64,000 nucleotides of DNA from assembly GCA_050084515.1 (NCBI GenBank), contig CM114271.1:4216001-4280000 (forward strand). The letters run 5' to 3'. The DNA comes from Blasia pusilla (Eukaryota). Below are positions 15,302 through 39,032 of the stretch, in pieces. The notes beneath the pieces were generated by a model that had not been told where the DNA came from, made no database searches, and was given only the letters and a program-made list of their open reading frames with translations. The first letter of the stretch is position 1, and every line of letters starts with the position of its first letter. The position numbers were made by a program, and so were the translations under genes.

Positions 15302-18300
15302 CGCAAAGTGATTACTGGCACAATTCGACCCTATAATCCTCAACTATCGACAGCTGAGTCTCTCGCTATGGACGCCACAGAGCCTTTGCCGAAATGGCAG
15401 ATCTGAACTTTCGAAGTTCCGGGAGCTTCACAACTCATGAGAGTCTTGAAACGTCACACCTGACGGAATTCGCGGGAGAGTTGGATGCTGAAGGGGGGGG
15501 GATAGGAGTCTTGGAGACATCCAACAGAACTACAAAAAGCGCGAATTACCCCGGCAGATCGGAATCGGAGGAAACACAAAGGCTCACAAAGGCGTAGCTG
15601 CGAATGCCTTCCCAGGCCTTGAACACGTAATTGCGCAGACGTGGCGGCAAGAACAACAAGATAATTCCCAAAAATTCCTGGTGATCGTCAAGATCAATAG
15701 TGGAAGCTGCAAGAAGAGTGACGGTATGCGTTGGCAAGTGAAACTGAACTGAGCGGACGCAAGCTGTCGATTGGACCCGAGCTATTTCCTAGAATGATGT
15801 TGATAACAATTATCTTGTAGAGGGGATAGAATCCAATGGTCCTAAGTCCCATGGAAGGCTAGACGATTCGATGTCATCAGACCAAGTTAACGAGGCTGGT
15901 TAGATCAGGCTGTAATTGAGAGAGTGTGTAATGTGCAAGGCCTCGGCCCAGGAATTTCTCAGAATTTGAATCTAAATACTGTCTTCTACCTGATAAGGAA
16001 TCCAAGAAACGCTTCCCTCAAAGGATCGCTACTCGAGGTATCCGACGAATCGAAGGAGGCGAATACGAATATCTTGCAATGAGCTAATCCCGTGATCGAG
16101 CATAATCGCAGGTCAAATGACAGACACGGCAGCTTCGTTTAGGCGCGCGTCCACAAAGGCTTCCCACGGCTAAAAAATGTCAGGACATAGAAGAAACATG
16201 TAGAAACCTCGTCCTGTGACCAGAGCTAAATTGAACCCTCAGTCTTGATCGACTACCACAACATGATCGAGCGCCATAGCCAGAATGTCGCCGGAAAGTA
16301 GAGCAGGCGGTGGACATCGATCATACATGAACACTTTCAGCTCTCGTACCCCATTCTCTGGTATCCTTCCTTCCCCGCTCTTCCTCTCTTCCTCTCTCCC
16401 CCAATTCCTAATACCCTGCCCGTCCGTCGTCTTTGACAGCGAGAGATGGGGGGGGGGGGTGGTGGAGGGGAGATGGCGCGGGCGCCGTTTGCATACTTAC
16501 TCTTTACTACGTCCGCAAATAGAAGAATGTGAGAACCGCCACTAAAGTGACTAAACCAACTGGCAGTGCATACGGTAGCTATGAAGCACGTGGCATCGCG
16601 TATTAGTGTGCAGTGTTATGTTTCCGTGTTTCTGTTTTGACTCATCCACCTGCCCGGTGGTGGTGCTTCACATGAACTAAGTCCGTCATGAGCGACTGTT
16701 GAAAGCGGTGTCACGCCTCCAGGCACCACTACAGTTATCCGACTACAGCGAACTCAATTCACACGTGTAATAAGACTGATGTGTCTTGCTCGTCTTCCCG
16801 GATGACTTCGCACCGGACAGATGGGGCGCGATTCTAGTGAAAGAACAAAGATGCATTTCGATAAAAACGAGTGATGGAAAACCCATCGAAAAGGAAGAAG
16901 GGGGCATTCCCCCTAACGACGAAACTCATCAGCAAAGACAATATCAGCAACAACAAGAGAACTATGACTACTACTAGTGGGCCTAGTGAAATGGAAAAAA
17001 AAAGAAAATGAGTACTCTATCCGCAGACGTTTCAAGAAATCTATTATTATTATTTATATTTATATTACGAGCACCGATTATGCAGTCCGACAGCCCTGAA
17101 ATTCCAAACGCAAGACTCGCGATCAACCTCTTTCCGATCATGCTGCTCCTGCTCCTGCTCCTGAATACTCGCTCGACTCTGGAGCCCGATCGTGCCGATC
17201 GAGGTCTGTGTTCAAAAGTTCTGCATCCGGCCGACCTCTGAACTCTTCATTGAATTCACAGCTCCACATCGAGCGTGTCCAGCGCGGAAATTCGTCAGAG
17301 AGACGTTAAAGAAAGACATCAGTTCATAATCTCCCTCGGGGACCCCAAACAACAAAATACAGAAACCACGCTTCACGAGTGACCAGTCACGACCACTGCC
17401 GATAATACGATAGCAACGTATGTCTGGTCGCCCTCTCTACATTCAGCCACGACACCCCTTTTCTTCCCGACCTCCAAATATAGCGTTTCTCCCCCACCCC
17501 ACCCCACCCGTCTCCCCTCCTCACCGCGCACGCACGCCCGCAGGCAGGTACTCCACTATCTCATTGGCCGATGGCTCCTCCACCCGACGCCGTCTCCCGA
17601 ATTCAGGGGTCGTCACCGGAAGACAAGGGCCCCGAAGCGCGAGGCCGGGTTTACCGGCAGACCTGCCCGCCCCGTCACAACGCCGCCTTTGGCAGGATTT
17701 TGTAGCTGGAGCGCACGGAGATGAAACCCTACTGTCTTGGCGAGGTGGGGGCAGAATGACGACGAGGGAGCCCAAGTGAGGGAACAGGCGCTATTCGGAG
17801 AGCTTCTTGATTTCGTAAGGGCCGCGATAAATAATGTACTGCAACGATACAGGTGTATAGAGGACGTGGTGGTACACTTACTGTACTGGATACCGATCAC
17901 CAACGGGAGGTGGTGCCTTGAGCTGTTGAGCGGACGGAATGTCGGCTGCCTCTCACAACTCGTGCCCTGTCGCGTTCGCTTAAGTTGCGACGTTCGCGAG
18001 TCGTGACGGGCGCACAGTTCGAGGCGTCTCGTCTCGTCTCGCTGACTGTCACGGCAGCCTCGAGGAGAGTTGACCTTTCGTCACTGTTTTCCGTAGATGC
18101 AGTAGGTGCCGTCGCGACCTACGCACTGGCAAGGGTCCGTCCGTCCGTCCGTCCGCGACATCGCTCGCTCGCTCGCGGCGGCGCTATCGACAAAGACAGA
18201 TAACGAATAGCACGCGTGAACCGACTAATTGAGGACGGACTGACGGACGACGTCCTCCTCTTCGTGCGTTCTGTCGCTCCACGGTCGTGTTCAATCGTCA

Positions 18301-20209
18301 CAACGACAAGGCTTCGTTCCGGGAGTAATAATGCCCCCCCCCCGCCCAACTCCCTCGGAAACCCTTGTCCCACCCTAGTCTTTCTGGTCCTCTCCGTCTA
18401 CGGTATTCACTTGTTCGGTTATTTACGTATTGGCCTTACTCGAAATAACGTTGAGTTTTTAATATTAGTACCTGCATATATTTCACCAAATAATCAATAT
18501 ATCACAAAAAGAGAAAAAAATTAGAAAATTCTTTTTGCATGAAAGACGAAAAGGATATACATTTTTTCTTGAATGTACACCTATGTTTTAGCAAGGTTGT
18601 TTGAATTTTTGTGGCGGAGTATGACTTGATTACGAACCCGTTTGTGGGTGTTAATAGCATTTTGGTATGGCAAGCTATAGATGGTCACCAAGTTCTTAGG
18701 CTCCTTACTAAGGGACTTGACACCTTCGAACCGGGTGCCAATTTGGCCCAACCCCATCTTTGACGAGAATTTTATTACGATCACTCTTTCTTGCCATTCA
18801 TAGGTCTACGTATCTAGGATTGAGCAACCCTAAAGGCCGCCTCCCAATGCTAGAGCAACCCTTAAGGCCGCCTCCCATGGACACCCTAAAATCTTAGTGT
18901 CCTTGCTAATGTGGGGGTTGTGAGGATTTCCACCCCAAATTGGGCACGGGCACCAAAATCAGTTCAAAGACCACCATAAATTCATATTAGTGTGTAGCCT
19001 CTATCATGCGCGAGAGTGAAAAATACACTAATCATGTTGCGTACAATTTCAAAAAAAAATTCCGTCTAGTTGTCATGTGTCAACCATACATGTGTAGGCA
19101 AATCAATATTATAGATTTCACAACGATGTTAATCGGATTCTCGACTAATCCTTTTGGTATTTGAATTCCGTTCAATATATGCACTATGTCTTATCCACAC
19201 GACCTCGTGGCGACTATGGGAGATGACCCTAAGAGAGTGGGGTTTCTTTTTTTCAATTTAATGTATGAGTGCTAAAAAACAACATGTTGTCTTGTGGACT
19301 CTATCAAACAAATAGATCGCATTTTTCTCAAGTTTTCTTCCATTGTCTTCCATGAAGGTACCTATATTATAATAGGCCATCCTTAATGAACAATGACACA
19401 AAATAGCAAAATGCTTGCAATTTTGTCCATTGATTCATATTTGCTAGGAAGGGAAAATGAATTTGAATGGGAGAAGAAATTGATATTATTAATTAATATT
19501 CATTATTTATGTAATTTATATAATACTTGACGACCCTATGTGTACAATAAGACAAAATAGAAATAAGTTTATAATTTTTTCCTTAATGCATGTTTGAAGG
19601 GAAGGAAAAATGAATTTTCTCGAAGAGTAAAATGATTTCATCATGTATTAATTAATCAATTAATTAGTGTTATTTTTATGGAAGGAATAGAGGGGGAGAA
19701 CTAGGTATTGTTTAAACTTTATCGAAGGGTGGAAGTATTTAGGGGAGTGGGGTTTTATTTAAATTTTAAGTAGTGGATTTATTTAGAAGAGTGGATTTTT
19801 ATTACTATTTTAAGATTTAAGAAATTAAAATATACATTTAAATTTTGAAATAAAATTATGAATTTTTTTTAAAGAATTATTTTAATTCACATTTGATATT
19901 TTGGGAAAGGAAAATGAATTTGAATGGAAAAGGGAAATTATTTCATTCATTAAAATTAACTAATGATATAGTTAGTGGATGTTATTTTGGTGGAAGGAGC
20001 CACCACTCACGAGTGGAAGGGGAAGAATATGTATTATTTAAACTTTTACGGAGAGGTGACATTATTTAGGGGAGTTGTGTACTATTTAGCTTTTAATTAG
20101 GGAGTGGAATTATTTTAAAATTGAAAATTTATGACTCTTTTAAGATTTAAAAAAATGGAAATTATATTTTGAAATGAAATTGTTTCTAAATCGTTAAAAA
20201 AATCATTTT

Positions 20210-20238: not shown

Positions 20239-22183
20239 TTTCATCTATCGTCATGAATTATGCAAGTCCATTCTTCACTAAATATTTCATGCGCAAATCC
20301 GTTTTTATCTTTAAACATATCATCCATAAGTTTTTTTTTTCACAAAGGATTCATGTCCTCGTATTTTGAGGATTATTTCTTGATCTCTCTATATTGTGTT
20401 GTCGTCCATAATTGCGCGCAATGGAAAAAGTAGAATATTGCACCAATGATTGCTTCCACAAGTGCTTCAAATGTTAGTTGTCAGTATGTGGAACATAAAT
20501 TCTATAACAAATTTCAATTCAACTAAGTATTCTTTTGCAAAATGATGTCATATGACCCTTCTGATGGTCACGAAAACTCTCTATCAAAACTATGGCCCCA
20601 ATGCATCAAGGAGGAAGGAATCCTACACAAAAAATCTTTCTCGCTAAACTAAAATTTTAGTCATCCTCCTCTCTCAGTTTTAGCAAGCCACATAATAATA
20701 TTCCCTCTTTTGAGACTCATCATGAAGATAATCTCCTAAGTCATGGCAATATAGCCCCCCTATTTCAAGCATCATTAACCAAGTCTCTCTTATGTTGGCC
20801 TAGACGACCAAAATTTTGAAACGCTCCATGATCATCAAGAGCATGGCCATTGCATAGGTTTTCAAAGTGCTAAGGAAAGAAGATAGCGCCTCTAGGGAAT
20901 AATAAGACGAAGATAAGATGAAGTGTGGTAGGTATGGAGAGCGCTTAAAGAGAAATAAAGAACTATAGTTGTTCAACATTAAGCAGGAGGACCTAAGCAA
21001 AATCAGATCCATGATTAATTAGGAGACGACAGAGCATATGTTGACACTAATAGTGGATGAAACATAACAAAAATGGGAAGGTTTTAGCAGCTTCAAAAGG
21101 GACTATGATTCAGACTACTGTTGTATACTTATGTGTTGTTGCATGATACTTGTCCACTAAATACACTACATAATATGAATCACAAAAATTAGTGTAAACT
21201 TCCTATACGCACTATGGACGAGTGAAGAATCGATCATGTGTACGCATGCATAAACGTAAGTATAAATCTTGATTAATGTTCAAAATTTTCCAGAAACTTT
21301 TACTGGTAGAGGATTAATTAATTAATAAGATAATAAGTAACAATATGTATTATTTGAACTACATGCACTTGCACTACCGAGTACACATCAATAATATGGG
21401 GAAGAGGAAAAAAAGGATAAGAATTTATGATTAGCGTTTAGTATTAGCACCAATGTTTTGAAATAATTTTTCGTTAACACAAATAATTTGAATATCGCTA
21501 GTTTTGGTGAGGGTCCATTGGGAAACTTTGTTATACCAAAAGGATCTTACACAATTATGGAGTATGGTGGTTTTCTCAACAAACCCCATGCTCATTAACT
21601 TTTATCATGTGGGTTTTTTCTATTTATGTGTATTAAATTTTCTATTAACCTCACGAAGAAGAACCATTTCCACAATTGCAAGCAACAAAATATGGCATTC
21701 CAAGGTTGCATAGTATGGATCATTCATCAAGCTCATTTAGTGGATAATCCAAAACCACAATTTTATATTATCATCAAAGTTTTTAATTAAAGAATGTAAG
21801 ACTTTAGGTAATTGAATTGAGTTTTTAGTATGATATGAATTTCTATGATTACAATTTTTTATGAAATATTTTTTCATACATGAAAATTCCCATTGAACTA
21901 GACATGGGTAGTACAAAACCAACACCCTAAAAGAAGGACACCATTCTAAGAACATTGTTATAAAAACACACCTACTCCATATCAATTGAATTCTTTGCTT
22001 GAGAGGGCTCAACTTTATGGATTAATAAGAAATTGGATCTATTCATCCATCCTATGGATAGAACCCTTATTGCACTAAATAGCACAATACCTATCTACAT
22101 GCTTTATGGCGAAAAACCTTGCGTGGATTTGTTTATCATTTTCTCTTTCTTTACAATGGAGGCCTCTTATGCCAGCTAGGCTT

Positions 22184-22696
22184 TGTCAGGTCTTTTAGGA
22201 TAGATCGGTGAGATCTAGTGGAACGCCTTTGAGTAGTGGAGGACATGCTCAAGAGGTTGAGGATGACCTGATGAGGCCCCGAGAAACCTAAGAGAGCAAG
22301 TTTTCCCTTCGTTTCGGATCATTTGGAGCCATATTGAGGAACATACTATTTTAGGTAAGTACCATTTTGAGTATATGGTCGACTTTCTAATTTTTTTAAG
22401 CGGCCCTTGGTCTCCTACATCAGGTCAAGAGCCAAGGAGGTGACTTGGGAGCATAGGTTACCATGGAGAGAGCTTGAGAGAGGGGAGGGGTATACCTCAA
22501 GGAGAGAGAGTTTGAGAGCTCATTCTCTCTTTATTGAATCTCTTGGCACGAGGCGACGGAGCTATGGTCCCTTGCCTTTTGAGTGTAACCCAAGCCTCTC
22601 ATTAGGAGAGTGGGTTTGGTTTGACATGGAGAGAGACATGTGAGAGTGCACACATTTGAGAGCAATGGTGTTGAGAGAGATTGGATCTTGATTTAC
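22184..22696 (+). repeat. Element 1 repeat B1 (5' terminal, promoter-bearing)
   Basis: Direct repeat of 32301-32835 with substitutions and a ~20-bp indel. TATA-like TATA at 22491 and Inr-like TCATT at 22520. Confidence 0.9.
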
Positions 22697-25600
22697 AAAG
22701 AAAGAATGAGATGAGTGAGAGAGCTTCATGGGGGAGCTCATTGGTCACTCGCTGGTTTTGCAGGTTGGGGATCGTATTCCCCGTTCAGCGGTTCATGGGA
22801 GTGCTCACCGTAGCTGGATCCACTCATTTTTTATGTTTTCTTTGCTGATTTTTTGTTTGTAAGTGTGGCGCGCGGGAGCGCTGCCCAATTTTTGATAGGG
22901 ATTGAGTATGGGGCCGAATTTCCCCATGTCGGTACTCTCGGGAGCACCATGTAGCTTGTTGATTTTTATTTTCACAGGTTTTATAATTTCTTTGGGAGAA
23001 ATCAGCGCGGAAGCGCTGCCAAATTTTGTGTAGGAGAAAGAGACGTTGGGCTTTACGACAATCCCCGTCAGTTTTTACTAGAATGTCCGATTCAAAATAT
23101 TTTTTAATACTGTCACAGATCGTAAAGCTGTGCACGCTGTGCAAAGACAGTGCACAATTTGAAGTTGCGAGCAAAAATTTATGGTCAATCTTGCAGAAAT
23201 GCCATTGCTAGGCAATTTTTAGGGTAAAATTGTTCAAACCCTTAAGCAGCCGCTGCGCCGGCAGCAGCCATCGCCGTCATAGTCACCATCAACGGTCAAC
23301 CATCACCATCAACGGTCCTCTGTCACCGTCAACGGTCTACCCTCCACCGTCCACTGGCGGTCGCCACCGCCGCCTAGCACTGATCATAACCGCGTTCGGC
23401 CGTTGTTCACCCTTGGTTGCTATTGCCGCCATTACGGAGTGGAGGGTCTTCCACAACGACTGTTGATTCTTTGACTTGTGCCACCACCACGTACTTTATT
23501 TTGGCCGCCATTGTCATCGCAATTTCGTCATCAACGTGTGATGGCAAGTGACCTCGGGTTATAGTGTTTGAGTTTTCATTTCATTCTGCTATGTTGTGAT
23601 TGGTTGCTGCTCGAGGACGATCGAGTACCGTGCCGTAACGCCCATAGCTGCAACGCGCCGCCGATTGCCGCGTTGTGCCGCTCGTGGCCGCACCGCACCG
23701 TCTCGATCGCAGAGCCGCTCCTTCACTAAGGAGCACATCGTGTGTATTTTTTATTGAGGAGGGTATGCCATGGAGTGCCGCATCCCATTATCGAGTGACG
23801 TGCCGTTTTGTGCCGCCAGTGCCGCACCGTACCGCGGGATCCGCACCGCATATCGAGGAGGTTTGAGCAGCGTCAATACGAGAGGAGTACGACTTGCTGA
23901 TTGGAGGAGTTGTCTTCAAGACCAAGTTGGGGTTGAAATTTGCAGTTGCCGAGGAGCGACATCGACATTATTATCAGGTTACCCAATCTGGTCTCTTACC
24001 CTACATGTGTGACGGAATTCCGGGTATTAGGAAGTTATTTGGGATATTGGGCTTCATACTAATGTTGAGAGCATTGATGGCATATGGGTTGAGGGGACAT
24101 ATACCTATGTGGGATGTCCAGAGTTGAGGATGGTTTATCGATGAGATTATAGATAATTTGATTTGCCGCACCACGCCACTTGTTGCCGCACAACACACAT
24201 CTCGGTGAGAGAGTGTAGCTTGAGTGCCGCATGTTAGATTGAGTGATTCCGTGATTACTCGTGAGGTTGAGAGTGATCGTGTGAAGGGGGCACGAGGGTC
24301 ATCACGGCATCCTTTTGAGACTTTGAGAGGTGAGGTGGTAGACCGGAGAGTAGCTCTAGAGGGTTTATGCGGAGTGGTGCGAGGTTTCGAGGGTCTCCAC
24401 GTGCGGGACCACCTCGACCTCCTTCTGTGTCATCTTTAGACAAGGAGGAGGGCATAGAGGAGTTGAGTAGTGCTTTGCCACTCACATTGAGTAGTCCTAT
24501 TGCTTGGACGTACAAGATGGACGACTGACGTAGAGGACCGCGTAGGTTCTTAGGTGCAGTAGGCACGATAGAGTTGCAAGACTTCATCGCGGAGTTTAGG
24601 AGTTGGTACGACTCACAACGTGCTAGGAACTCTAGAGAGTTCAACCCGTTATCAGCATGGAATGTATGTTCCAGCATTTAGAGGGGACACCCATGAACGA
24701 TTACCATGAGTTCTCCCACAGATATGCCCAAGAGATTGAGGCATGGCGACTCTACTTTGACCCACACTATGTGTCATGGACGGAGTCGTTCCCAGTTGAG
24801 GAGGAGGAGTTAGGAGACGCTACTTCCTCTTCCACCAATGATGTTCTAGGAGGGTAACTCACATTGGAGCACTTGCACTGTCCATTCTGGTTCGTCCCAC
24901 GTTCCACCCCGTGGTTGAGTTCTTTGCTGAGTTGAGGGCGAGCTACCAGGGGGTACGGACGGAGAAGTTGCGGAGCATCCACGACTTCGAGAGGCGCCCG
25001 GGTGAGAGTAACCTCAATGCCATAGCGGCAATGTGCTCATGTAGCTGCTATATCTAAGCAGCCATCCCAGCCTCACGCCCGACGTCTCCCTCGACGCGTC
25101 TAGGTGGTGGGACTCTACCTCCTCCACAAGCAACTCCACCACCCTGTTAGGCAACTCCAACTCCGCGTTCCCCAATAGGACCACCTGGTGTAGATTGTTG
25201 CTATGGCATGGAGGTTACTCGATGTCAGATCCGTGGCCTTGAAATCATATGGAGCAGCCAAAGATATGGAGGATCTTGGTTTGATGTGTGGGGTTTCCCA
25301 GGTGGAGGCCGCCATAGTTGTGACGCGTGGAGCAGCCGTAGAGTTGGATCCACAGCAAGGGGAAGCCAGGAAACAGACCAGACTTCCTCAATCTTTCACG
25401 TTGTCCGAGGCGATGAGGACCCCATCAATGGGTCCTCATCAGAGTTCTTGAAGAGTTGGTGATGTTATTGGTATGCAGCATAGAGGGCAATGGGAGAAAC
25501 AAGTGCGAAGACTCCTATTGTGGATGCTCAGAAGGAGCATGAGTCGAGTACGATGTTGGGGGCGGCCACAATGGTGTACCGTGCTCTGCTATTTTTTGCT

Positions 25601-26586
25601 TCCGATGTTATGACATTGGGAGGTACGCCCATCGAGGTGTTTCGGCTGGCTGCTATGCTAGGTGAGCGTGGAGTTGGAGTTCTTGCATCACGTTCAGAGG
25701 TGATTGCAGAGGAGGTGATGGACCTGCCCTTGGAGCTTATGCTCAGGCCGTCCACGTTAGATTCATGGTAGGCTACGGCTGCTAGGATGGCGGAGATGCC
25801 CACTAAACCCGCGATAGAGCGTGCCATGGCTTCACCTGGTGTTGTGTAGTTGGATAATCGGGGAGAGGTCTTCGAGTTGGTGAGTCCAGAAGGTAGAGCT
25901 TTTAGTCCGCAACGCGTCTTGTTGGATTCAGGAGCGCAACCCTTGATGTTGGGGAAAGCGTCATTCAGAGGATTGGGTTTGATGAGAGCCAATGTAGAGC
26001 GTTGTCCATTCCGGATATAGACATCCTTGGGTGGAATGAGTACCACCCAGTATATTACCCAATAATAGGTCATGGTGAGGATTCGCCCGGGACATCCTAC
26101 AGATGAGTCCGTGGTGCGAGCCAAGGCGATAGTGACTGATGGAGAGTCCTACGAGGTCTTGGTTGGTGGAGCAGTGTTATACCCGATGGTGTTTTCATTG
26201 GATTACTGGGAGAAGTCAGGGTCCTACAGACCAGGATGGCAGTCAGGTGATGGGCGCCTTAGCTCATTACCCTTTCGATTCAAAGGTGCAGTGATCGAGC
26301 GACGTCTAGGAGAGATGGCGACCTTAGCAGCATTGAGCAGTGCCATCACTTGGCCTAATGATTTGATTGAGGGACATGTCCATACAAAGGATACTACCGT
26401 TCCTAACATTTCTATGGAGAGGAGTGTCATGGTAGTCGCATCAGTCCGTGGAGGAGAGGTGCCGCTTTGGGGCTCGATTGAGGAGCTTCGACGCTTAGCC
26501 ACTAAGCATGTACAGACCGCGTGGAGCGAGATGTTTGCACTAGAGTGTGACGAGTCAGAAGACCCCAAGTAGCTAGGAGTGCCACT

Positions 26587-27590
26587 ATGACCCCTTTGGA
26601 CACCACCCTGATTGTGTGGTGCATCCCAGAGGAGGGTATTCGGGTATTGGATCTCTTTGGAGGGATCAGCACTAGGTTAGTTGTTGTTTTGCAAGCTAGA
26701 GTGCGCGTGCAGCAGTACCTGTATGTGGAGATTGATGATGTTGCGAGGCGCGCTTCCTTTCACCATGTGACGAAATTATGCCTCCGTTTTCCCGACTTAT
26801 TGTCTGCGTCCGCCATTCAGGGTTATGAGAGTTCCCTACCGAGGGACATTTCATTGTTGGAGGCGCAAGACTTTGAGCGGGTAGGGACCATAGACTTGGT
26901 CATTGCTGGTTGGCCATGTCACCGTCAGTTGAGTGTTGGACAGGGTAGCAGATTAGCTGACTCTCGGTCCATGTTGTTTTGGGAGATGATGCGAATCTTG
27001 CGACACTTGCAGGAGCATCAGTCTCGTCCTCCAGCATACATTATGGAGAATGTACCAATTTTGGGCGATTCGAGGTCCCGTGTGGTGACGAGCGCACAGC
27101 AGGTGCGGGCATGGATTGGCTCGGTAGTTTTTTTGGATGCGTCAAGTGTGGGTTCACGAGCGCATCGCCCGTGTGTGTGGTGGACCAACTTGGTGCCACA
27201 TGAGGTGTTACGGAGGGCTTATGCGCGAGTGGGGCTTCCCTCCGAGTTTTTGGTGGATTCTATATTGGATCCGGGCCGTCGATCATTAGCAGTGAGGCAC
27301 GCTGATTGACCGTTGTTGACTGTGGTCATCAGGATTAGCATGCCACGGGCAGCCTTTCCCACATTGGTGAGTTTTCTTGCTTCCTATGCATTCAAGGAGG
27401 CCGGGCCTGGCTTGGTTTGGGATGACTAGGAACAAAGGTTGGTGGAGCCCAACGCCGATGAGCGAGAGCGAGCAATGGGATTCCCTATAGGAGTGATGGC
27501 AGTACTATCACTATCAGAGGCATCACGATGTCATGTATTGGGTCAGGCGATGGACCTAAACTGCTTGACATGGTTTTTCAACTTAGGAGT
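26587..27590 (+). pseudogene. DNMT3-like C5 cytosine methyltransferase domain of element 1
   Basis: Motif I IRVLDLFGGIS; II YVEID; IV DLVIAGWPC; VI YIMENV; VIII LDASSVGSRAHRP..WWTNL; IX ERERAMGFP; X VLGQAMDL. Internal stops at 27307 and ~27427. Confidence 0.9.
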
Positions 27591-29840
27591 AGTTGAGTAG
27601 GGTCGTTTGAGGATGCGACAGATCACAACAGTTGCGTTGGTGAGCCCCGTGCCTACCAAGACGATTAAGGCAGGGGCTGGGGCAAGATCCGAGGAGTCCA
27701 AGGTAGTCTCTCCCGATCACCACGGATGATCGGGAGAGACACCCTTGGACTTCTTGGGATGTTTTGCAGATACGCCAAGAGATGGTAGCCACAACATTGA
27801 GCGTGGTTCCGGGTACTGCACGTGGAGATGAGAGTTCTACTGTCCGAGACGGGGTTGCACCATAGCAACCACCAACACCCGCGCCAAAGAGTCCTACCGA
27901 TGGAGACTTGGGAGCCAGATATGGGCCCTAAGTTGACAAGAGGAGAGCGGCGCCGGATACATCAATTCCTGAGGAGTTATAGGAGCTATTTTGCATTTAG
28001 CATGCAGGATTTGGGTACGTTGAAGGGTCTAGGGATCCCCATTGAGTTGTCGAGTGACACGCCGATCTTCCGATGATCCTACAAATACAGTGATATGGAG
28101 AGGGCTCTGATTCAAACTAGGAGCCAGAACTTGGTTAGAGCAAGACTAGTGAAGATGTCGCATGGAGAGTATGGATCTGCCACTATCATGCCCGCCAAGA
28201 AGGATGTGCATGGCAACTGGACGGATAGGCGGATATGTGGAGATTACCGACCTATCAATTGGCAGACAAAGCCCGATAGGTATGCCATGCCCACCCCTGA
28301 GGAGATCTTTGATATGATTGGGCATGCAAAGGTATTCAATTCATTGGATTTGCAAGCCGGATACCATCAGCTGCCTATCAGATTGGTGGACAGGCAGAAG
28401 ATGGCATCTTGGGGCATTGATTCTCACGAGAAGGATTGTTTGTACCAGTGGCTGTCCTTACCATTCGGGTTAAAGAACGCCCCGGCTGAGTTTCAGAGGA
28501 TCATGGATAGGATCTTGGCATGTCTCGATTTTGCTAGGTGTTATATTGATTACATCGTAGTCTTTAGCATCATGGTTGAGGAGCATGAGGGACATCTAGA
28601 GAAGGTGTTTCGATGATTGCAGTTACATGGGTTGAAGCTACATCCAGGCAAGTGCAAGTTCTTCTACGACCAGATTGAGAACTTGGGTCATACAATATAC
28701 CCAAGGGGCCTTGATGTGCAGCAAATGAAGGTATAGGCTATTTCACGCCCTACAGATGTGAGTCAAGTTTGTGCATTCATGGGATTGGAGAACTTCTATC
28801 GACGGTACGTCAAGGGTTTCAGTTCGATTGCAAAGCCGCTAACCTTGCTGACCAAGGTGGATCAGGAGTGGCATTGGGGGGATGAGCACGAGAGAGCATT
28901 TCAGCTGCTCAAGGATAGATTGATGTCCGCGTCCATATTGAGGAGACCGATCAGGGGGCTTCCTTTCCAGTTGCATACCGTTTGGAGCATGTTGGGGCTT
29001 GGAGCCGTGCTCACCCAACATGACGATGATGGTAGAGAGTTCGTGATGGCTTATGCTAGTCGCTCGAACAACGCTGCAGAGGCAAAGTATAGCTTGTATG
29101 AGGGTGACTGCTTGGCTGCGGCATGGGATGTTGCATATTTTAGGTGTTATTTATTCGGCAACCCCTTTACCATCATTACTGATCATCAGCCACTTAAGTG
29201 GTTGATGGAGTTCGACAAGCTTACAGGGAAGCTTGCGAGGTGGGCTCTTATGTTGCATGAGTATGACTTCCAGGTGGTGCATAGACCTGGGACGCTCAAC
29301 CAGGATGCATAAGGTTTGAGCCGTAACCCATATGGGAGTCAGCGAGATGCGACTGGAGCTCGTTGGCATGGTGAGAGTGATGAGGAGTTGGTGCCAAGAT
29401 GGCACGCATCAGCTTATTTCGGCTTGTTGGCTATGGGGCGCCAGATTGCTGAGACTTCAATGGCAAGGTTTGATGGAGAGTCCTTAGATCCAAAGGCCGG
29501 TGAGGAGACAACTGGTGGCCGAGACATTCACGACTATGGAGTGTTCTTGGAGTATATGCGTACTGGTAGCGTCGCGAGCATAGTGGGTACTAGAGAGCGG
29601 GATCGGATCCTATAGCAAGCCAGACGGTTCCGGTGGGAGGGGACACATGTGTTGTGATTTTGGGAGGATGGTAGAGTGCGTGTGGTGCCTCATCCTTCGC
29701 AGAGAGCACGTTTATTGCGTCATGCCTACGAGGAGTTGGGTCATTTTGGAGTGAAGCGAATGTACAGCTTGCTCCATATACAGTATTGGTGGCGAGGCAT
29801 GCAGACTGACGTTCAACAATTTATTGCCCAATGCATGGTG

Positions 29841-30866
29841 TGTCGCAACCCTAATAACCAAACAACACCAAATAGGCGCCAAGAGGAACATCAAAACTCA
29901 AGGGGACTCACGTTGCGATGTTTGCGCTTTGGAGAGGCGTTTGGAAAGGTCTCTTGGAAAAGTCCAAGAGATGAAACGCGGAACAGATTTGTATGTTTCA
30001 TGCGTTAGTGGTCGCGACCAGGAATACTAGACCAAACGCGAGCCAAGACTTGAGATGAGTTGAGTCTTGGAAGGTTGGTTGCCAAAGAGGTAAGAACCAG
30101 TTTTGGAACACGACTAGCAATTGGGGAATTTGACTGTATTTTGGACCATAACGTTTATCCCCAAGATGAGTTGGGGACAAATAAGGGCGCGTTAGAAAGC
30201 TTATCTTGAGAAGCTTCCAATGCACTAAAGATCTTAGCAAACGCTTAAGTATGGATTGAGATATTGGCCACAAATGATTGTATGAGCAATCGGGTTGAGG
30301 GCCAATTGGAGAGGCCCGGGTGTCTTTCCCTAAATATAGGGAACCCCAGAGATCCCCAGATTACTAGTAAAGGAGGATTCTCTCCAAGATGGCTTGGAAC
30401 ACGAATCCCCACTTTGAGCACCAAACGCCAAACTCCATCACCCCACGGGATGGAGTTTGGCGTTGGAACTCGAAACCCAAACCTAATCCAAGGGAGTGGA
30501 CTTTGTACGCCACCCTTGGATTCCAGCCCGAGATTCACTTTGTGCAAGTGTTGGTTTGGGACTCATTGGATGTCCATCGGATAGTTTGAACCGCCAGGCC
30601 CGAAACGCCGTTTGAAGTTCCTGAACCGACCAGAAAGTCTATCCCAAGTCTTTCGAAACTTGCCCGTGTTGTAAACCGCAAAACTAGGAAGGTTGAGCTT
30701 GATGAGAGACCAAGACGAGAACTCGGAAAGTTAGCTTGCTGATTGATCCAAGACCCGACTAACCAGAGTGCATGTTTGGATGCAGATCAACGTTGAGAGT
30801 AAGACCTACTGAACGCACGCTTCCGCAACAACAAGATTAACGTTCAAGGAGAGTAGGCGCACGACA
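29841..30866. mobile_element. Solo LTR of another family nested in element 1 integrase
   Basis: TGTCG...CGACA termini with 5-bp TSD TGGTG (29836-29840 and 30867-30871). Removing it restores QCMV|CDRVRASFN, matching element 2. Confidence 0.9.
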
Positions 30867-32172
30867 TGGTGTGTGATCGAGTCCGAGCATCGTTCAATTC
30901 TCCGACTCCACAGTTGCATTCACTTCCAATCATGGATTTAGGTTAAAGATGTTGTTTGGATTTTGCAAGACCTTTGCCTTTGACGGAGCGCTATAGTCGT
31001 TATGTGTTGGTGATGGTCGAGCACTTCTCGAAGTGGATAGAGTTGGTTGCATTGCCTCACAAAGCGAGTGAGAGAATAACGTATGCCTTCCTAGATCGAG
31101 TGTTGAGTCATTATAATACACAAGCTAAGGTGTTGAAAGACCAGGGTATAGAGTTTCGCGGGGAGTTTCAGGCCTTGTGTGATCAGGCGTTGATCGGCCA
31201 CCGCACTACTTCGCGAGATCATCCTGAGGCGGATGGACTAGCGGAGAAAGCGATGGTGACAAGAGGATTACGCAAGTATGGCTTGCAAAGAGGTCACCTA
31301 GGAGATTGGGAACTCCAGTTGCCGTGGTTGGCGATGGAATACAGATTCAGCAAGTAGGCATCCTTAGCGTCTTTCCCATCGTACTTCCTTTTCTATGGCC
31401 GAGAGCCAGATTTACTTGCGGCCATTCGTCAAGATGTTGGTCAGGTGTTGAACCTTCATGATCATGATGTATGGATGCGAGCATGTTCTCAAAGGACTGA
31501 GTTGTTTCGAAGAGTGATGCCCATGGCGTTTGAGAAGTTGGCGATTGCACAACATCGGGATACGTTGAGCAATGCGAATATTTGAGGAGGTGATTATCGA
31601 TCTACTATCCGGAGGTTTCATCAGGGAGACTATGTCTACTTGCAGCAGACGGCACCCACGATGTTGGATGTGATTGTAGGGCGTACCATCTTGAGAGTGC
31701 GTGAGGTTTTGCCATCAAGTATTCTCTTATTGGAGGGACGCGATGGTATGGTTTGGAAGGACCATATGAGTAATTGTGCGTCGTGTCACCTTCGGAACAT
31801 TGACGGTACAGTTGATCCGAGTTTAGCAGTAGTTCCTGCAGGCTTGCAATGTATGTTGTGTGGTTATGCCCGTGGTGCAGCCACTATGCTAGTCTGTGAT
31901 GGATGTTTGAGAGGATGGTATATGGCATGCTTGACGCCACCTCTCACTAGGGTTCTTCAGGAACGATGGATGTGTCCCAGATGTACATAGAGTAGGTAGT
32001 TCTACAATCCAACTTGTGTCTGTGACATGGATGATAAGAAGGTGACTAACAATGGGGCCACATGAGCACCCGGCCTTCTTGCTCTTAGCATCCGAGAGAT
32101 GTATGTCATGGTAGGTAAGGATAGATGGCTATCTGGAGTTAGAGGGATCTAACCACCAACTAGGGGGGCGAT

Positions 32173-32961
32173 TGGAGATATTTTTGTACTTCTTGTTTCG
32201 TTGTTTGGATGCCATGAGTTAGCATGGGATCGTGTGTGTTTGTATGTGTGTTCGGTGACAACGATGTATATTGTGTAGGGATGTATATGCGCACGACAAT
32301 TGTCACGTCTTTTAGGATAGATCGGAGAGATCTAGAAGAGCGCCTTTGTGAGTAGTGGAGGATATGCTCAAGAGGTCAAGGATGACCTGCTGAGGCCCTG
32401 GGAAACCTGCTCTCTCAGGTTTCCCAGGGTCTCTCTTAGGTTCCCCTTCATTTCGGCTCATTTGGAGCCATATTGAGGAACTTGCTATTTTAGGTAAATA
32501 CCATTTTGAGTATATGGTCAACTTTCTACTTTTGTTAAATGGCCCTTGATCTCCTACATCAGGTTAAGAGCCAAGGAGGTGACTTGGGAGCATAGGTTAC
32601 TATGGAGAGAGCTTGGGAGAGGGGAGGGGTATACCTTAAGGAGAGAGAGCTTGAGAGCTCATTCTCTCGTTGTTGAACCTCTTGGCACAAGGTGGCGGAG
32701 CTATGGTCTTTTTCCTTGTGAGTGTAACCCAAGCCTCTCATTAGGAGAGTGGGTTTGGTTTGACATGGAGAGAGATATGTGAGAGTGCACACATTTGAGA
32801 GCGATGGTGTAGAGAGAGATTGGATCTTGATTTACTGGAGATATTTTGGTACTTCTTGTCTTGTTGTTTGGATGCCATGAGTTAGCATGGGATCGTGCGT
32901 GTTTTTGTGTGTGTTCGGTGACAGCGTTGTATATTGTGTAGCGATGTGTATGCGCACGAGA
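32173..32961 (+). repeat. Element 1 3' terminus A1-AT-B2-A2, preceded by PPT AGGGGGG (32162-32168)
   Basis: A1 (32173-32298) and A2 (32836-32961) are 126-bp direct repeats flanking B2; junction CGACA-AT-TGTCA at 32294-32305. Confidence 0.92.
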
Positions 32962-34184
32962 GCTTCATCACTCACATCCACCTCTCCAAACGGAGTGCAA
33001 TGGATTTATTTATGCGCATCTCTAAAGTCTTCTAGGGTTTTGAGTTATCTCGGCTTTCACCCAAGGAGGATATAAGATTTTTTGGTGTTGGTTACTTATA
33101 GACCATTCATCACCAAAATTTATGTGCCCTTATTGAGCCAACTACACTCCGTCAACCCCACCAACTTCTCCAATTCTCTGAAGGCAGAGCAATAATGGCA
33201 CTATTTTTGCATGTCTCCAAAGTTATCTAGGGTGGAGGCTCACAGAGGCTTCACTCAAGGTTCTGCGATGCTGGTTAAGATTATTTCCTTCTTACTCCAC
33301 GCTACCGAGCCACATAGACTCCATCTGCCATACCAACTTCTTGGAACGGAGAGTACTAATGGCACTATTTCTCAACATCTCCAAAGTTATCAAGAGTCCA
33401 AGGTTTTCCTAAGGAAAGTACTATTTGGGGATACTTGTTCATACAAGAAAATCACTTCTGCTAATGGGATAAAGTTGGGGAAAATAATTTTTAGGATGGT
33501 GTGGGATTTAATGGATGTCACATCTAAGTAGCCGATAGGTAGGGATCTATCCTGACGATGACATAGAGAGCCGGCGTCCACGGACTATCTTGAATGTAAC
33601 TTCGTCTTGAGGTGTTGAATGGGGTTGAGGATAGTTCCGTTGTGTCAGAAACGTCGTTTCTAACAACTTTTCTGTTTGGGTCTTTCACAGTTGAGTGACT
33701 TACTAAAGAAGTCACCCGAATATATGTGCGCGCAGGTTACCAAGAGGATTTCTATTTTTAGGGGAAGAGCCTTTTGGCTCTTCTCACACCTATATATGGG
33801 AGAGGGATGGTTTTCCCAAGCCATCTTTCTCATGTTGGGCCATTGGAGCATCTCTCTTGTTCGTGTGTGAGAAAGAACCAGGGTGCTAGCGTCCGGATTC
33901 CTTAATAGTACAAGATGGACGAGGCTCGATATGCCAATGTAGATTGAGGAGTGGAGTTTTAGACTAGATGTGCCATTTTTACTCTTATTTTTGTTGTATG
34001 ATCTCGATGTACATGCATGAGTTGATTTTTGTTCATGTGTGGATCTATCCGTATGTTGGGGAAGATTGGTGTTGTATGGTGTAGATGTGACCAGCGATAT
34101 GTATGCACACAACATGGATATAAGAATTTTTTTTAATGAAAATTCTATATTCTTATTGCATAATACCTTTTTTGGTCAAATTCC

Positions 34185-34537
34185 CATGGTTGCATAGAAA
34201 TGGAGATGTCCATAGACTTGCCCTTTTTGGTACCCTGGTGGCCTACGTGGGCTCGAGATGAGGGAACGGGGTGCAGCCTTAGATTAAGGGAGGCAGGCAG
34301 GATACGGCCCGCCCTATGCAGGCCTATTGCGGGCCAATGCGGGCCTAGAGCGGGTCAGGTGGGCTACAAAAAGGGCGACTAGTTCTTAGACTAGGTGCGG
34401 GCTAGTTGAGCCTAGGTGTACATTGCGGGCGGGGCAGGCTTGAGTGCGGGCCGTGGGTACCCACGCCCGTATGAATACGTCCGTCCTAAGAACAGACATA
34501 AGTCCGCAGACACGCATTTTGTTTGTGAGAAACCTTA
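34185..34537. mobile_element. hAT-type MITE
   Basis: CATGGTTGCA ... degenerate GAAACCTTA ends; 8-bp TSD CAAATTCC (34177-34184 and 34538-34545). Confidence 0.8.
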
Positions 34538-34572
34538 CAAATTCCTCTCCTCTTGATACATGACAGTTTCAG

Positions 34573-34750
34573 CAAGGTTGTATATAGAAAAAGTCCATAT
34601 CCACAGACATGTCCATGTTCATGGACTTAAGGTCCGTCCTATAGAAGGACTTGTCTATGTGGGCCCCATATCCCCTTTATTTCTCATCCCTCCTCTTGCC
34701 TTTGTGATCCGAACTTTCTTGTCTCTCCTCCTCCCACCTCCACTCCAAGG
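34573..34750. mobile_element. Truncated copy of the same hAT MITE family
   Basis: Starts CAAGGTTGTA; body resembles the reverse complement of 58400-58644; no second end seen. Confidence 0.6.
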
Positions 34751-35417
34751 GAAATGAGTTTTCTAATGGTCATCTATTGATTCCTATCCTTAAACACCAC
34801 ATTCTTGACGGCTCCAAGGCTACCTAGGAGCATTTAGGATGATAGGAATTTCACCCATGGAAATATATAACATAATTAGAGGATTGAGTTCTTCTTAAAA
34901 AATTTGGTGGCATGACATGTGGATAGATATGGAGATTTTTTTAAAGTGATCCCATAATAATATGAGTTTTTTTAATTCCATTCAATTTGAGTCATGTCTA
35001 ATGATTTGAATTCTTAATTTAGTTATGCATGTATTGCGCATATATGCACCTTAATGGTGCCTATTAATAATAAATATCCATATCTTTGGACTAAATATGG
35101 AAACATTTACCTTTCGTATTTTGGTTCTACATCAACCCTTGTGCCTATTCATCCTCTGGTTTTCTAACCACAGGTTGAGTTAGTTAACCCCAACCCCTCT
35201 TTAGGATTCTCCTTTGAAACAAGAATAAAATTTTCATTTTCTCCTTGCTAACAAGCAAGAGACTGTAGCTCTATGGGCAACTCCTCCCCTGCTAAACAAC
35301 TAGTTGTGTGTTTGAATCAGGCTCAAATACTCCAAATTTCCCAAGTGCTTCTCCCTACTTTACTCGACTCTCACCCCCATGACCTAACCCGAGGATGAAT
35401 AGGCACAAGGACATCAA

Positions 35418-35604
35418 CTAGTGTAAGCTCGTGCAATGCACAGGTTTGAATCACCTCCCATAATTAATCCTTAAGTGCCATTGTAAGTCAATTTTGAGCA
35501 ATCCTATTGGCTCAAAAGATAAATGATCCTATTGGCTAAAAGTGCAAAGAGGAGAAGAGTTTGCAAAATGAAAGGGTACTCTCCAATAATAATATACACT
35601 AGGA
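35418..35604 (-). mobile_element. Non-autonomous Helitron (approximate)
   Basis: The minus strand ends with hairpin GTGCATTGCAC and CTAG followed by T; possible 5' TC near 35604. Confidence 0.55.
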
Positions 35605-38449
35605 TATATGTTAACTAGTGCACTGAAAATGCCTCCACTCTTACTTGTGTCATGCAAATTAGCGAGATGTAGTAGCATGTCATTCACACAAATTTAAGTT
35701 TTTAAGATGATAAACATCTATCTACTCACTTAAAAAAATTGATTTCATTTCAAAAATATTTCAACTCTAGAAAAGGAAAGAAATACCCCATCATTATATT
35801 ATGAAGTTTTATTTATAACATTACTTCTTGATTAATTCACCTAATTTATTTCAATCTACCTAATCTAGTTTCATCACGTGCTCCATTCACAAATAGCTTC
35901 ATATAACGCAATGATTCCCCTTATTTTCTTTCCACAAGAGATGATTTGACACCTCTTTTTTTTAAATAGCTTCACTTCTTTTAGAATAAACTTCCCTCAC
36001 ACATTAACACCACTTTCCTTAATTAATAGTATAGATTATAACTAATTTATCTCTTTTGGGCATAGAATAGTATCATCAAGAAGAAAAAATCACTAAAATC
36101 CTCCCATAAACATTTTCAAACTTTCTCCCTCCACGGTGTACATTAAATGGACATAAGTGAACTCAATAAATATGGGAGGTTATGATATCGATACCTTTTT
36201 TTATCCATAAAAGTTCATCAAAATCATTGAAACAAAGTGATAAATGTTACTCATATTCATAAGACTTTGTGTTGCATATAAAGGTAGCATTAGTGAGTGA
36301 TCTCTATGAATTATTAGGAGATATATTATTGTAGTCATTCCTTCAAAGTTTTTATAAATTTGAGAGTGGAATGTGCACAAATGAGTATGATCATACCTTA
36401 AGAAATAATGAACAAAATGGAGAAAAAAATCATGATATTAAAAATATGGTCATGGTAAATTTTTAGTGATGGTGTTTCTATGTAAGCATTATTATGCCAT
36501 TAAGGTTTTGGCTATGATTCTACCATATATTCCATATTGATGTCAAAATAGAAAATCATATGCATTACAAAAAAGTGTGCTCTTAGTGTACACAAATTTT
36601 GACCAAGAAAACCTAATAAGAAGTGTCAAAGCACAAAGGAACTAACACATGTATAATCTACGGTCAAGCAAGAACTTGTTTAGAAAGTGACAAGTAGCAA
36701 AAATATAAGAATTTGCTTACAAGATCGAGCTCTTTCCTTGTTCCAATTTCTTTTGTGGCTAATATCTAGAATCAATTTTTTAACAAGTAAAAATACATCC
36801 TTGGAAAGGTATTTAGAAATGTTATAATGCACCTCAACAATTTTGAAAGTATATCTAGACAATTTACAAAGAAGTAATTTCTTAGCTCTAGATCTAAACA
36901 TCTCATAAATACATGAAGGGAAGGGAAAAGTTCCAAGTGGCTACCGATCATCTTTTGGGTAATTTCTTAATGTGATTTCTACACTATGATATTAGGGTGC
37001 ATAAGTAGTAAAAAATAATTACCATGGGAAGTTTAATATGAAAGAAGAAGTGGAGAGACTTGGAGTGAGGAAGAGATAAATTTCTTAAGGGAAGGTGGAT
37101 GACTTTTTCTTCTCTAAGTGAGGAGGTAGAGAATTTGGGAACCTTGTTTTCCTCAATTAAGGAAGGATGATAGTTTCCAAAATGAGGAGGATGAATTGGG
37201 GGTTTTCTTATTCCCAAAACTAATAGGTGGAAAGGATGAATTTCCAAATGAAGGAGGGGGCCATGGAGTGAACTTTCAAAATGTGCAATAAAGGAAAAAG
37301 TGCATTGAAATTTTCTCAAAATGAGCATAAGAATTTGTTATGTTTAATTTGTGCAATGCATGAGCGCAATAAATCTTTTCTTTATTCAATAGACTTCCCT
37401 CTTAAATATGAAGCACTAAAGAGACAAGAAAAACCATACAAAAAAAAGCCACAAATATTTTCCAATAACCAAGAAGGGGAAACTATCAAACATAAAATAG
37501 AGAATGAGAATATCCCACAAGAAAAAATAGACAATGCATGAATTATTTAATACTATTAATAATTTGTGTGCAATGTATGAGAGTCATATTAACATGTACC
37601 AAATTCTTATCATGTTAGATAGTTTTCCAATCCACATTTTTTTTTCATAGAAAAAAGCCATTTAAACAATACGATGAACTCTTTGAAAGACCGGATGCAT
37701 CAACATTCCATCATGAGGCTTCACTTAGTTTAGAATATTATTTCCATGATAAGCTCTATTATTTTAATTCTAAATTAGATGAGTATTGTTCCATTCATAC
37801 TTAGCCACATGCAACCTAGTGATTTCCTTATTTACTTTCCATAAGAGATGATATGATACTTCATATTTGCCTCTTGAAAATAGCTACAATTCTCTTCGAA
37901 TTGACTTTCCTCACATAAACCCTCTTCCCATTGTCCCTTACTCAATTAATAATATAAAGGCTATACTATATTTTACATGACTTAAAAGAAGGATGGCAAG
38001 TGTTCAAGGTGGAATATGTCCACTACTAAATCTTGATATGTTAAGACTACAAGAATACTCATCAACTTTCTTATGTCATCCACTAGGCATCCCTCTCATC
38101 AATGTTAAAGTTTGAGTGTGATAACTATCTTTCCATTTTTTTAAAATTCCCCTTTTCTATTCTCATAAAATGATTCCAATTATGAATATTCCAACTTTAT
38201 GCTAGGCAAGAATATCTCATCTTTCAGATTTATGACTTGCAAGGTGTATCCCTAATGGCATTCCTTCATCCTCGCGTGCTTCACTTTGCCAAGCATACCA
38301 ACTTAGCTAATTGGATGTCATCCAAGTTGGCATGTATCCATTGTATGAGTTAGTGGTTGATATTGTGGATACTGGATCCTTCACATCCTCCACTACTAGT
38401 ATATTCTTTGAATTTGGGCGGAAGAAATTGTGATGTTCCTCTAAATCTC

Positions 38450-39032
38450 TGTCGTGCGAATCCACATCGTCATACAACATACATCGCTGACATACCATAC
38501 TCACATACATACATAACATAGACGAGAGCATCCACAAACACAAGTGTACCACAACTGAAATCCGTGAAAGACCTACTGTCATAAAACACGTATAGAATCA
38601 CATACAATCGAGCCAAACCCACTCCACGATGGGAGAATCTAGGTCGAAGCTTGCAGGAGACACCATAGCCAAGAGCTCTACTCACTACCAAGGCTTACTC
38701 CCAACACAACAGGCTCAACTCAAAGAACTGACTGTTCTTTGAGTGCACTCCACCTTATATCCTCCAACCTAAGAGTGGGCCCTACTGGAGAAGTCACCCT
38801 CAACTGAGTAACCCCCAACCCTATGTATGAAATTGCATCTCTACCTAGACACTGCGGCCCTACATAAGGTATGGCCTCTACTAGCACACTATACTCTACG
38901 ACATAATCCGTATGGTCATGACAGCTGTCGTGCGAATCCACATCGTCATACAACATACATCGCTGACATACCATACTCACATACATACATAACATAGACG
39001 AGAGCATCCAGAAACACAAGTGTACCACAACT
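38450..39032 (-). repeat. Element 2 3' terminus A1-GC-B2-A2, preceded by PPT (plus-strand C-run 39033-39039)
   Basis: 107-bp A repeats flank a 368-bp B; junction TGACA-GC-TGTCG at 38919-38930. Confidence 0.95.

Follow-up and report, generated by a model that had tools for sequence, protein, structure and literature searches.

Split repeats bounded by a target-site duplication

The window analysed here is a stretch of 64,000 nucleotides from Blasia pusilla (GenBank assembly GCA_050084515.1, contig CM114271.1, positions 4,216,001 to 4,280,000, forward strand). At 22184-32961 on the plus strand it contains element 1, which reads as a decayed Ty3/gypsy long terminal repeat (LTR) retrotransposon of a lineage that carries a Dnmt3-like methyltransferase. 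Its direct repeats, designated A and B, are split in the order B1 - internal region - G-run - A1 - AT - B2 - A2, and the insertion is bounded by a 4-bp target-site duplication (TSD). Because the same arrangement recurs in two families and in metagenome loci, with matching flanks in eight of nine elements, the layout and its 4-bp TSD are, on the sequence evidence, real and heritable. The ends used by the integrase and the ends of reverse transcription appear to be out of register in this lineage. The layout is already known from Klebsormidium nitens; the anatomical detail and a testable model are new. The repeat features of element 1 are the following.

22180-22183, no strand: left TSD copy, GCTT, same as 32962-32965
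22184-22696, plus: B1; its start, TGTCAGG, is the left integrase end
22490-22493, plus: TATA-like box within B1
22519-22532, plus: predicted self-primer and RNA 5' end, 14 nt, 13/14 complementary to 22697-22710
22697-22710, plus: predicted primer-binding site, directly 3' of B1
32163-32172, plus: polypurine-type tract, GGGGGG (32163-32168) then CGAT, adjoining A1
32173-32298, plus: A1, ending in GCGCACGACA, the right integrase end sequence
32299-32300, plus: AT dinucleotide, midpoint of GACA-AT-TGTC, the palindrome in which A1 ends and B2 begins
32301-32835, plus: B2, repeat of B1
32836-32961, plus: A2, repeat of A1; its end is the right integrase end
32962-32965, no strand: right TSD copy, GCTT, same as the left copy

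An earlier sequence-only reading had placed B1, A1, the AT dinucleotide, B2, A2 and the GCTT duplication at these positions, and the repeat alignments agree with it. B1 and B2 are identical at 468 of 513 aligned bases (91.2%, 22 gap columns), and A1 and A2 at 115 of 126 (91.3%). B2 of element 1 joins A2 without a gap, so that the end of B1 appears fused to the start of A1. The six-G run (32163-32168) lies 4 nt upstream of A1, and the DNA similarity between element 1 and the second element of the window, described below, stops at this polypurine-type tract. The termini are TGTCA... and ...CGAGA, and the site in A1 that corresponds to the latter is CGACA; the ends of element 1 are read as TGTC...GACA plus one later change in A2. 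In the reverse-transcription sense, B1 is predicted to be the 3' part of U3 plus R-U5 and A1 the 5' part of U3.

Recurrence of the layout in a second family and in metagenome loci

Element 2, on the minus strand of the window, has the following features.

38450-48283, minus: element 2, whole; same repeat order, younger comparison element
48283-47917, minus: B1
48119-48115, minus: TATA within B1
48088-48078, minus: primer-like 11-mer, complementary to the primer-binding site
47916-47906, minus: primer-binding site, adjoining B1
39039-39033, minus: G-run before A1
39030-38926, minus: A1
38925-38924, minus: GC dinucleotide between A1 and B2
38923-38557, minus: B2
38554-38450, minus: A2
38446-38449 and 48284-48287: TSD, TCTC on the plus strand and GAGA on the element's own strand

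The B copies of element 2 are identical at 356 of 367 positions and the A copies at 104 of 105, and element 2 is judged from its sequence to be younger than element 1. The claim that the window holds a second, diverged family with the same split-repeat order was borne out. A self-comparison of the window, as had been proposed at the time, showed the same repeat order in both elements, and the coding DNA of the two, whose proteins had been called clearly diverged, is 66-72% identical. The B repeats had been described as unlike each other; indeed, no blastn match was found between those of element 1 and element 2, but they have a common GGGGTATA-type box and the same design.

JGI metagenome contigs were scanned with an alignment of the methyltransferase, which gave 80 loci. 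Two of these, L022 and L026, hold the complete element in the repeat order of the window elements. The 3' block A-NN-B-A, where NN is a dinucleotide, was found in L021, L041 and L066, and L006 shows A-NN-B on a contig that ends after B2. The proposal that the layout is a heritable trait and not a single event is thus upheld by both window elements and by L022, L026, L021, L041 and L066, which have different flanks. The distant loci L072 and L073 (45-46% identity) showed no terminal repeats, the contigs probably being cut there. Among named homologues, the closest to the methyltransferase piece of element 2 are from Marchantia polymorpha, Calypogeia fissa and Sphagnum (66-78% identity).

Both ends were available for nine elements, and the flanks matched at 4 of 4 positions in eight of them (element 1, element 2, L022, L026, L023, L025, L056 and L057). 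The duplicated sequences are GCTT, GAGA, AAGG, TCTC, TGTG, CACA, TTCA and TACA; the ninth element, L043, matches at 3 of 4. With the ends fixed at TGTC...GACA, the chance of a 4/4 match is p = 1/256 per element. The 4-bp length had been called atypical. It is real in 8/9 and unusual for a plant gypsy element, but it is no anomaly, as TSD length is family-specific according to PMC6317226. Furthermore, the divergence of the A pair equalled that of the B pair in all four complete elements (Fisher p 0.26-1.0), and both pairs were therefore probably identical at insertion and made afresh each time.

One reading considered is that element 1 is an ordinary LTR element whose odd layout stems from a single rearrangement, from a neighbouring nested element or solo LTR, or from faulty assembly, the flank matches being due to chance. 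The decay of both window copies, with stops and frameshifts, and the 1026-bp insertion in element 1 would be in keeping with such an origin. However, the same order and joints, with differing TSDs, occur in two families and in independent metagenome assemblies, the 4-bp flanks are perfect in eight of nine elements, and the same layout is in print for K. nitens (PMC5890265, legend). The recurrence of the layout refutes this explanation, which is regarded as extremely improbable.

The Logan contigs of sequencing run X1 indicate that the family is clearly very abundant in that run. The summed word depth over the B repeats (22264-22927, 32224-32887) is about 161,000-187,000, and that in the non-repeat bins of 34216-38199 is 2.6-115, although word depth is no copy number. 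The unique flanks match X1 contigs without difference. Among the best-supported joints, those listed from the Logan contigs of X1 and X2, which are short over the repeats, there was no empty-site joint for either element. Skips within contigs, such as that from 32165-32170 to 32836-32838, merely reflect the interchangeability of A1 with A2 and of B1 with B2.

Two sets of landmarks

One boundary of reverse transcription is placed at the 5' side of A1. A G-run lies directly before A1 in 8/8 of the contexts listed. In both families and at every listed locus, a conserved block made up of the G-run and about 30 bases upstream of it ends precisely where A1 begins. At the other landmark, the joint between B2 and A2, the last base of B1 is fused to the first bases of A1. 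Because the G-tract adjoins A1, the primer site adjoins B1, and the B2-A2 joint has the form of a U5 end meeting a U3 start, the LTR in the reverse-transcription sense is read as A-NN-B.

The landmarks of the integrase are elsewhere. The TSD and a short inverted repeat, TGTCRTG / CAYGACA, mark the start of B and the end of A, and the last nine bases of A, CGCACGACA, are identical in the two diverged families. In 8/8 joints between A and B, GACA and TGTC are exactly 2 nt apart. The spacer is GC in element 2, L006, L021 and L022, AT in element 1, L026 and L066, and AC in L041. The palindrome at this joint, 16 nt long in L022, is invariant in length, unlike the B2-A2 joint. By sequence, the integrase ends thus stand head to head inside the LTR as the palindrome GACA-NN-TGTC, like the LTR-LTR circle junction of retroviruses.

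Two simpler definitions of the LTR were tried and rejected. B alone, which also ends in CA, does not fit, as the TSD lies beyond A2 and the G-run precedes A1, not B2. An ordinary LTR of the form B-A, with A deleted from the 5' copy, would require the same 'deletion' to recur in every element.

The B2-A2 joint is exact in six of the eight distinct joints (element 1, element 2, L021, L022, L041 and L066). The other two (L026 and L025/L033) contain primer remnants. In L026 a 17-nt filler is followed by CGAG, the last four bases before A1; in L025/L033, ten bases of primer-site sequence and a few more lie between the B end and the A start. Comparable remnants have been described in passages of PMC11042837: Tf1 cDNA (complementary DNA) has a 3' end with full copies of the primer site and a 5' end that retains the final four or more polypurine bases, and ligated HIV circles keep both primer-site and polypurine remnants. 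The remnants in the B2-A2 joints therefore support end joining.

L025/L033, which is one locus (12476-13372), is an aberrant copy that follows the L022 element collinearly to about 6.6 kb and is then made up of inverted segments of B (140-246) and of the interior (2635-3099), followed by B 187-339, primer-site sequence and A. The copy nevertheless lies within a 4-bp TSD, CACA, and looks like a rearranged cDNA that was inserted by the integrase all the same.

A self-priming design next to B1

A primer site of the transfer RNA type, starting with TGG, is absent directly after B in both families. Element 2 and most of the 18 aligned metagenome 5' ends share a box, GTATAAAG (GATATAAGG in element 2), then CTCAAAGAAC, a loop of 3-5 nt and GTTCTTTGAGT. 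Counted from the first T of the box, GTTCTTTGAGT begins 31-32 nt downstream, and it is fully complementary to the 11 nt immediately 3' of the B end. The motif is partly deleted or mutated in some copies, e.g. L007, L026 and L057. Element 1 has an analogue in which the box at 22490-22493 is followed 29 nt later by CTCATTCTCTCTTT (22519-22532), which pairs at 13 of 14 positions with AAAGAAAGAATGAG at 22697-22710. The chance of such complementarity is about 9e-5 for the 11-mer of element 2 and about 8e-5 for the 14-mer of element 1.

Predicted leaders were folded from start points chosen by the analyst. The self-primer paired with the primer site in both the minimum free energy and the centroid structures of both elements (z -2.7 and -3.7). 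The primer site at B1 appears to follow the self-priming design of Tf1, and it and the G-run at A1 would serve in priming. Self-priming has been predicted in plants for the Tcn1 clade, according to PMC6317226.

Proposed route of integration

The model that is preferred here takes in the observed anatomy, the TSD, the remnants at the joints and a deletion derivative, and holds that end-joined cDNA is reopened by the integrase at the internal palindrome. The RNA would start about 30 nt downstream of the TATA box within B1, and its first 11-14 nt would fold back on the primer site and prime synthesis. Ordinary reverse transcription would then yield A-NN-B / internal / A-NN-B. The two cDNA ends would be joined, the B end to the A start, as in a two-LTR circle. 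The integrase would open one GACA-NN-TGTC palindrome and the molecule would be inserted with a 4-bp TSD. The inserted copy would be the circular permutation B - internal - A-NN-B - A, which would keep every part required for another round. After insertion, A1 and A2 could recombine with loss of B2, giving a dead copy of the form B - internal - A. Cleavage of palindromic LTR-LTR junctions by integrases has been described (PMC1905944 and PMC1180852). The model is given about an even chance of being correct. A broader version, in which integration from end-joined cDNA, circular or with tandem LTRs, is the rule for the whole charophyte and bryophyte lineage of these LTR elements, is put forward tentatively and is somewhat doubtful.

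Several points weigh against the model. Neither a circle nor joined-end cDNA has been observed, and cleavage of the palindrome by this particular integrase is a prediction. The main difficulty is that a circle with two palindromes should give both isomers, and only one is seen. The other isomer, B-A-NN-B-internal-A, was found in 0/19 metagenome 5' ends (16 distinct flanks) and in 0/2 window elements; A1-NN-B2 stands at the 3' end in six loci (L006, L021, L022, L026, L041 and L066). The missing isomer could be lost faster by recombination between its longer, closely spaced B copies, or the pathway could be directional. Both window copies are broken, and there is no sign here of current activity of either.

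The RNA data add to these difficulties. Two raw runs with the same species label, X22 and X23, were mapped on 21600-41500 of the window, and the predicted starts, 22519 and 48088, were not among the read-start clusters listed. Clusters were found instead at 32362 (5' end; B position 62 of element 1; 5 beside a depth of 13 and 17 beside a depth of 30) and at 38762 (B position 162 of element 2; 20 beside a depth of 100). The latter is an RNA 3' end for element 2, and lies 34 nt upstream of the predicted start and 3 nt before the TATA box. Both clusters fall within the motif TGGAGGATAT; cleavage, polyadenylation or initiation from a second start could account for them.

On the supporting side, coverage in the same runs was one-stranded. 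The depth was 34 and 45.7 vs. 1.9 and 1.3 on the two strands of bin 22264-22927, and 131 and 174 vs. 6.9 and 1.3 in bin 38864-39527. If the libraries are of the usual kind, the covered strand is the sense strand for both families. Additionally, 28 reads of X22 run from the B end into the leader after B1 of element 2.

The single isomer is accounted for by a different route, templated end repair as in DIRS-like elements, with no joining of ends. The RNA would run from inside B1 to A2, the A1-NN-B2 block would serve as template for the missing outer parts of B1 and A2, and the integrase would insert a linear B...A cDNA by its true ends. Such a linear, directional pathway predicts one isomer only, in agreement with the 0/19 count. 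Moreover, the repeat order is that of PAT/Ngaro elements, A-coding-B-A-B (as given in parts of PMC5890265, PMC7192593 and PMC4157794), and A is rich in TGTA motifs that, on our own reading of the sequence, could set a poly(A) site beyond B2. However, the conserved G-run at A1 and the self-primer site at B1 are ordinary primers that would give A...B ends, and there is no priming site beside the A2 end or the B start. The primer-site and G-tract remnants in two of the eight B2-A2 joints fit joined cDNA ends and not template copying, and the equal divergence of the A and B pairs would require most of A2 to be copied again in every round. Templated repair is the chief rival of the end-joining model. 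It accounts for the lone isomer, whereas the primer landmarks and the remnants are left unexplained, and it is considered unlikely.

The possibility was also considered that unit-length B-internal-A is the primary product, arising from one-LTR circles or from linear cDNA cut at both palindromes. The A-B-A form would then be a minority by-product, e.g. of two-LTR circles, and the sole replicating form. A single A followed by flank was found in 12 metagenome loci (L020, L023, L032, L039, L042, L043, L044, L051, L056, L057, L063 and L071), compared with six loci with A-NN-B. Four single-A copies have both ends, and the TSD is perfect in three of them (L023, L056 and L057) and matches at 3 of 4 positions in L043. 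The count is lowered by the fact that L056 and L071 are one locus. Furthermore, L023, with a single A, shares its flanks with L066, which has A-B-A, and the two are one insertion; the single-A form of L023 therefore arose by recombination between A1 and A2 that removed B2 after insertion. The other single-A copies fit either origin. A unit-length primary product is thought to be quite improbable.

Coding content and decay

In both window elements the Pfam domains of the translated open reading frames (ORFs) follow the Pol order RVT_1, RT_RNaseH, Integrase_H2C2, rve. DNA_methylase matches lie upstream of the reverse transcriptase in both. The gene order of the lineage is read as gag, Dnmt3-like methyltransferase, reverse transcriptase, RNase H, DDE integrase and PHD finger. 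The coding features of element 1 are the following.

26551-27306, plus: Dnmt3-like C5 cytosine methyltransferase domain (Pfam DNA_methylase, 6.8e-10); frame broken elsewhere
28077-29309, plus: reverse transcriptase and RNase H (Pfam RVT_1, 3.3e-15; RT_RNaseH, 6.4e-31), in two open stretches
29658-31354, plus: integrase, split by the 1026-bp insertion at 29841-30866
29658-30005, plus: Integrase_H2C2 zinc domain (Pfam, 2.6e-16)
30947-31354, plus: rve core (Pfam, 2.2e-10)
31586-31987, plus: C-terminal PHD finger (Pfam PHD, 4.7e-8)

A profile built from the methyltransferase and its relatives matched, among solved structures, DNMT3A/3B/3C chains best (8e-19), ahead of plant DRM2, and the motifs FGGI, PC and ENV are recognisable in the alignment. 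Against viral contigs the profile gave only six weak matches, on long viral contigs, in which part of the query aligned at 32-40% identity. The search for a tyrosine recombinase was negative: 100 ORFs of at least 70 amino acids, from both strands of both elements, gave no Phage_integrase match at E up to 0.001.

A PHD finger closes Pol in both elements (31586-31987 in element 1, 39207-39848 in element 2). In many plant gypsy elements the C-terminal module at this place is a chromodomain. With the Dnmt3-like domain, the PHD finger gives each element two chromatin-related modules.

Element 1 contains many stops and frameshifts in addition to the 1026-bp foreign insertion in its integrase, and is by its sequence a dead copy. 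The insertion (29841-30866) begins with TGTCGC and ends with GGCGCACGACA, the same end motifs as those of the Dnmt-gypsy elements. It is flanked by TGGTG (29836-29840 and 30867-30871), a duplication of 5 bp and not 4. Its interior has no match elsewhere in the window or among the 80 metagenome loci, and it includes a strong hairpin at about 30420-30466. RNA reads on the insertion match only 30362-30427 and carry unlike sequence on both sides of the match. The insertion may represent either a solo B-A unit or a non-autonomous element that a related integrase mobilised.

In element 2, RNA reads skip 1007 nt (39676-40684), with 13 reads from 9 starts in X22 and 21 reads from 13 starts in X23. The skipped stretch begins with TA and ends with TG on the plus strand, which makes it no standard intron on either strand, and it takes away most of the integrase. 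The reads probably come from transcribed family copies with an internal deletion.

Comparison with known elements

The closest described element is KnitGypsy-Dnmt3 of K. nitens, which is assigned a DIRS-type repeat structure with gypsy domains in the legend to Fig. 4c of de Mendoza et al. 2018 (PMC5890265). As described there, it has a gypsy-type Pol polyprotein with an inserted Dnmt3-like methyltransferase, as in the window elements, which also have the DIRS-like repeat order A-coding-B-A-B. The elements reported here differ in being from a bryophyte and in forming two mutually diverged families. A TSD, a palindromic A-B joint, primer sites and a mechanism all go unmentioned in section 9 and the figure legends of that account. 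The 58 matches to the methyltransferase included no named Klebsormidium protein. A streptophyte Gypsy-DNMT3 is named in passing in a 2026 preprint. These two publications were the only ones to emerge when the literature was searched for gypsy or integrase elements with split repeats. The literature covered, which did not extend to subscription journals and supplements, yielded no report of the TSD, palindrome, primer sites, mechanism or bryophyte occurrence of split-repeat gypsy elements.

PAT/Ngaro elements, which have the DIRS order and include SymbioDIRS-Dnmt3, share the split direct repeats, and some carry a methyltransferase. However, they encode a tyrosine recombinase and the present elements a DDE integrase. 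According to PMC7192593, the supposed integration route of DIRS-type elements is site-specific recombination of a circle, with a fixed, species-specific trinucleotide flank derived from element and target. In contrast, the elements described here have ends of the TG...CA type, a 4-bp TSD of arbitrary sequence (nine different) and a reverse transcriptase of the gypsy type.

The order of reverse transcriptase, RNase H and DDE (rve) integrase, the polypurine tract and primer site, and the short TSD are those of Ty3/gypsy elements. The difference is that there are no two identical LTRs at the tips: B stands alone at the 5' end, opposite A-NN-B-A at the 3' end. The element works as an LTR element does, but its integrated form is permuted. 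With Tf1/sushi and plant Tcn1 elements the likeness is that the first ~11 nt of the predicted RNA complement a site right after U5; primer-site and polypurine remnants at the ends of Tf1 cDNA (PMC11042837, passages on Tf1) are a further likeness. In Tf1/sushi and Tcn1 elements the LTRs are ordinary, the integrase ends being at the tips, and a chromodomain is present; they count as chromoviruses in PMC6317226. The window elements have integrase ends 105-126 bp inside the LTR and a PHD finger.

In retroviral two-LTR circles the integrase ends also meet head to head, in a palindrome that can be cut to give integration-competent ends (PMC1180852 and PMC1905944). The retroviral palindrome arises only by ligation, between two LTRs, and belongs to a side path. 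In the present elements the palindrome is templated in every LTR, and the joint of the ligation type is that between B2 and A2.

Implications

Split direct repeats have so far been regarded as a mark of tyrosine-recombinase retrotransposons. A gypsy lineage that combines them with a DDE integrase and a clean TSD shows the layout to be independent of the recombinase. The anatomy, i.e. the primer sites, the internal palindrome and the ligation-like joint with its occasional remnants, makes a remark in a figure legend testable. If the broader version of the end-joining model is true, the old route with the circle as integration precursor would be the normal life cycle of a eukaryotic retroelement, and the lineage would be a convergent, integrase-based counterpart to the split repeats of tyrosine-recombinase elements. 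By combining a Dnmt3-like enzyme with a PHD finger, the element is of interest for the way in which transposons of early land plants deal with the chromatin of their host.

In practice, standard LTR finders will miss such elements or assign them wrong boundaries, and dating by LTR divergence must use the B pair and the A pair. Derivatives with a single A will resemble gypsy fragments that have no repeats.

Other features of the window

In the GC-rich stretch at 9800-18100 the ORFs had no Pfam match. Rfam, at the gathering threshold, and ARAGORN found nothing in the 64-kb window. Tandem arrays with units of 68, 88-98 and 44 bp in 2-3 copies lie at 1517-1661, 4903-5182 and 19729-19814, respectively, in AT-rich stretches between the elements. 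A further retroelement occupies 59955-64000 on the plus strand and continues past the end of the window; it has a CCHC zinc knuckle (59955-60359) and an RVT_1 domain (61053-61679), and its reverse transcriptase is 34% identical to that of element 2.

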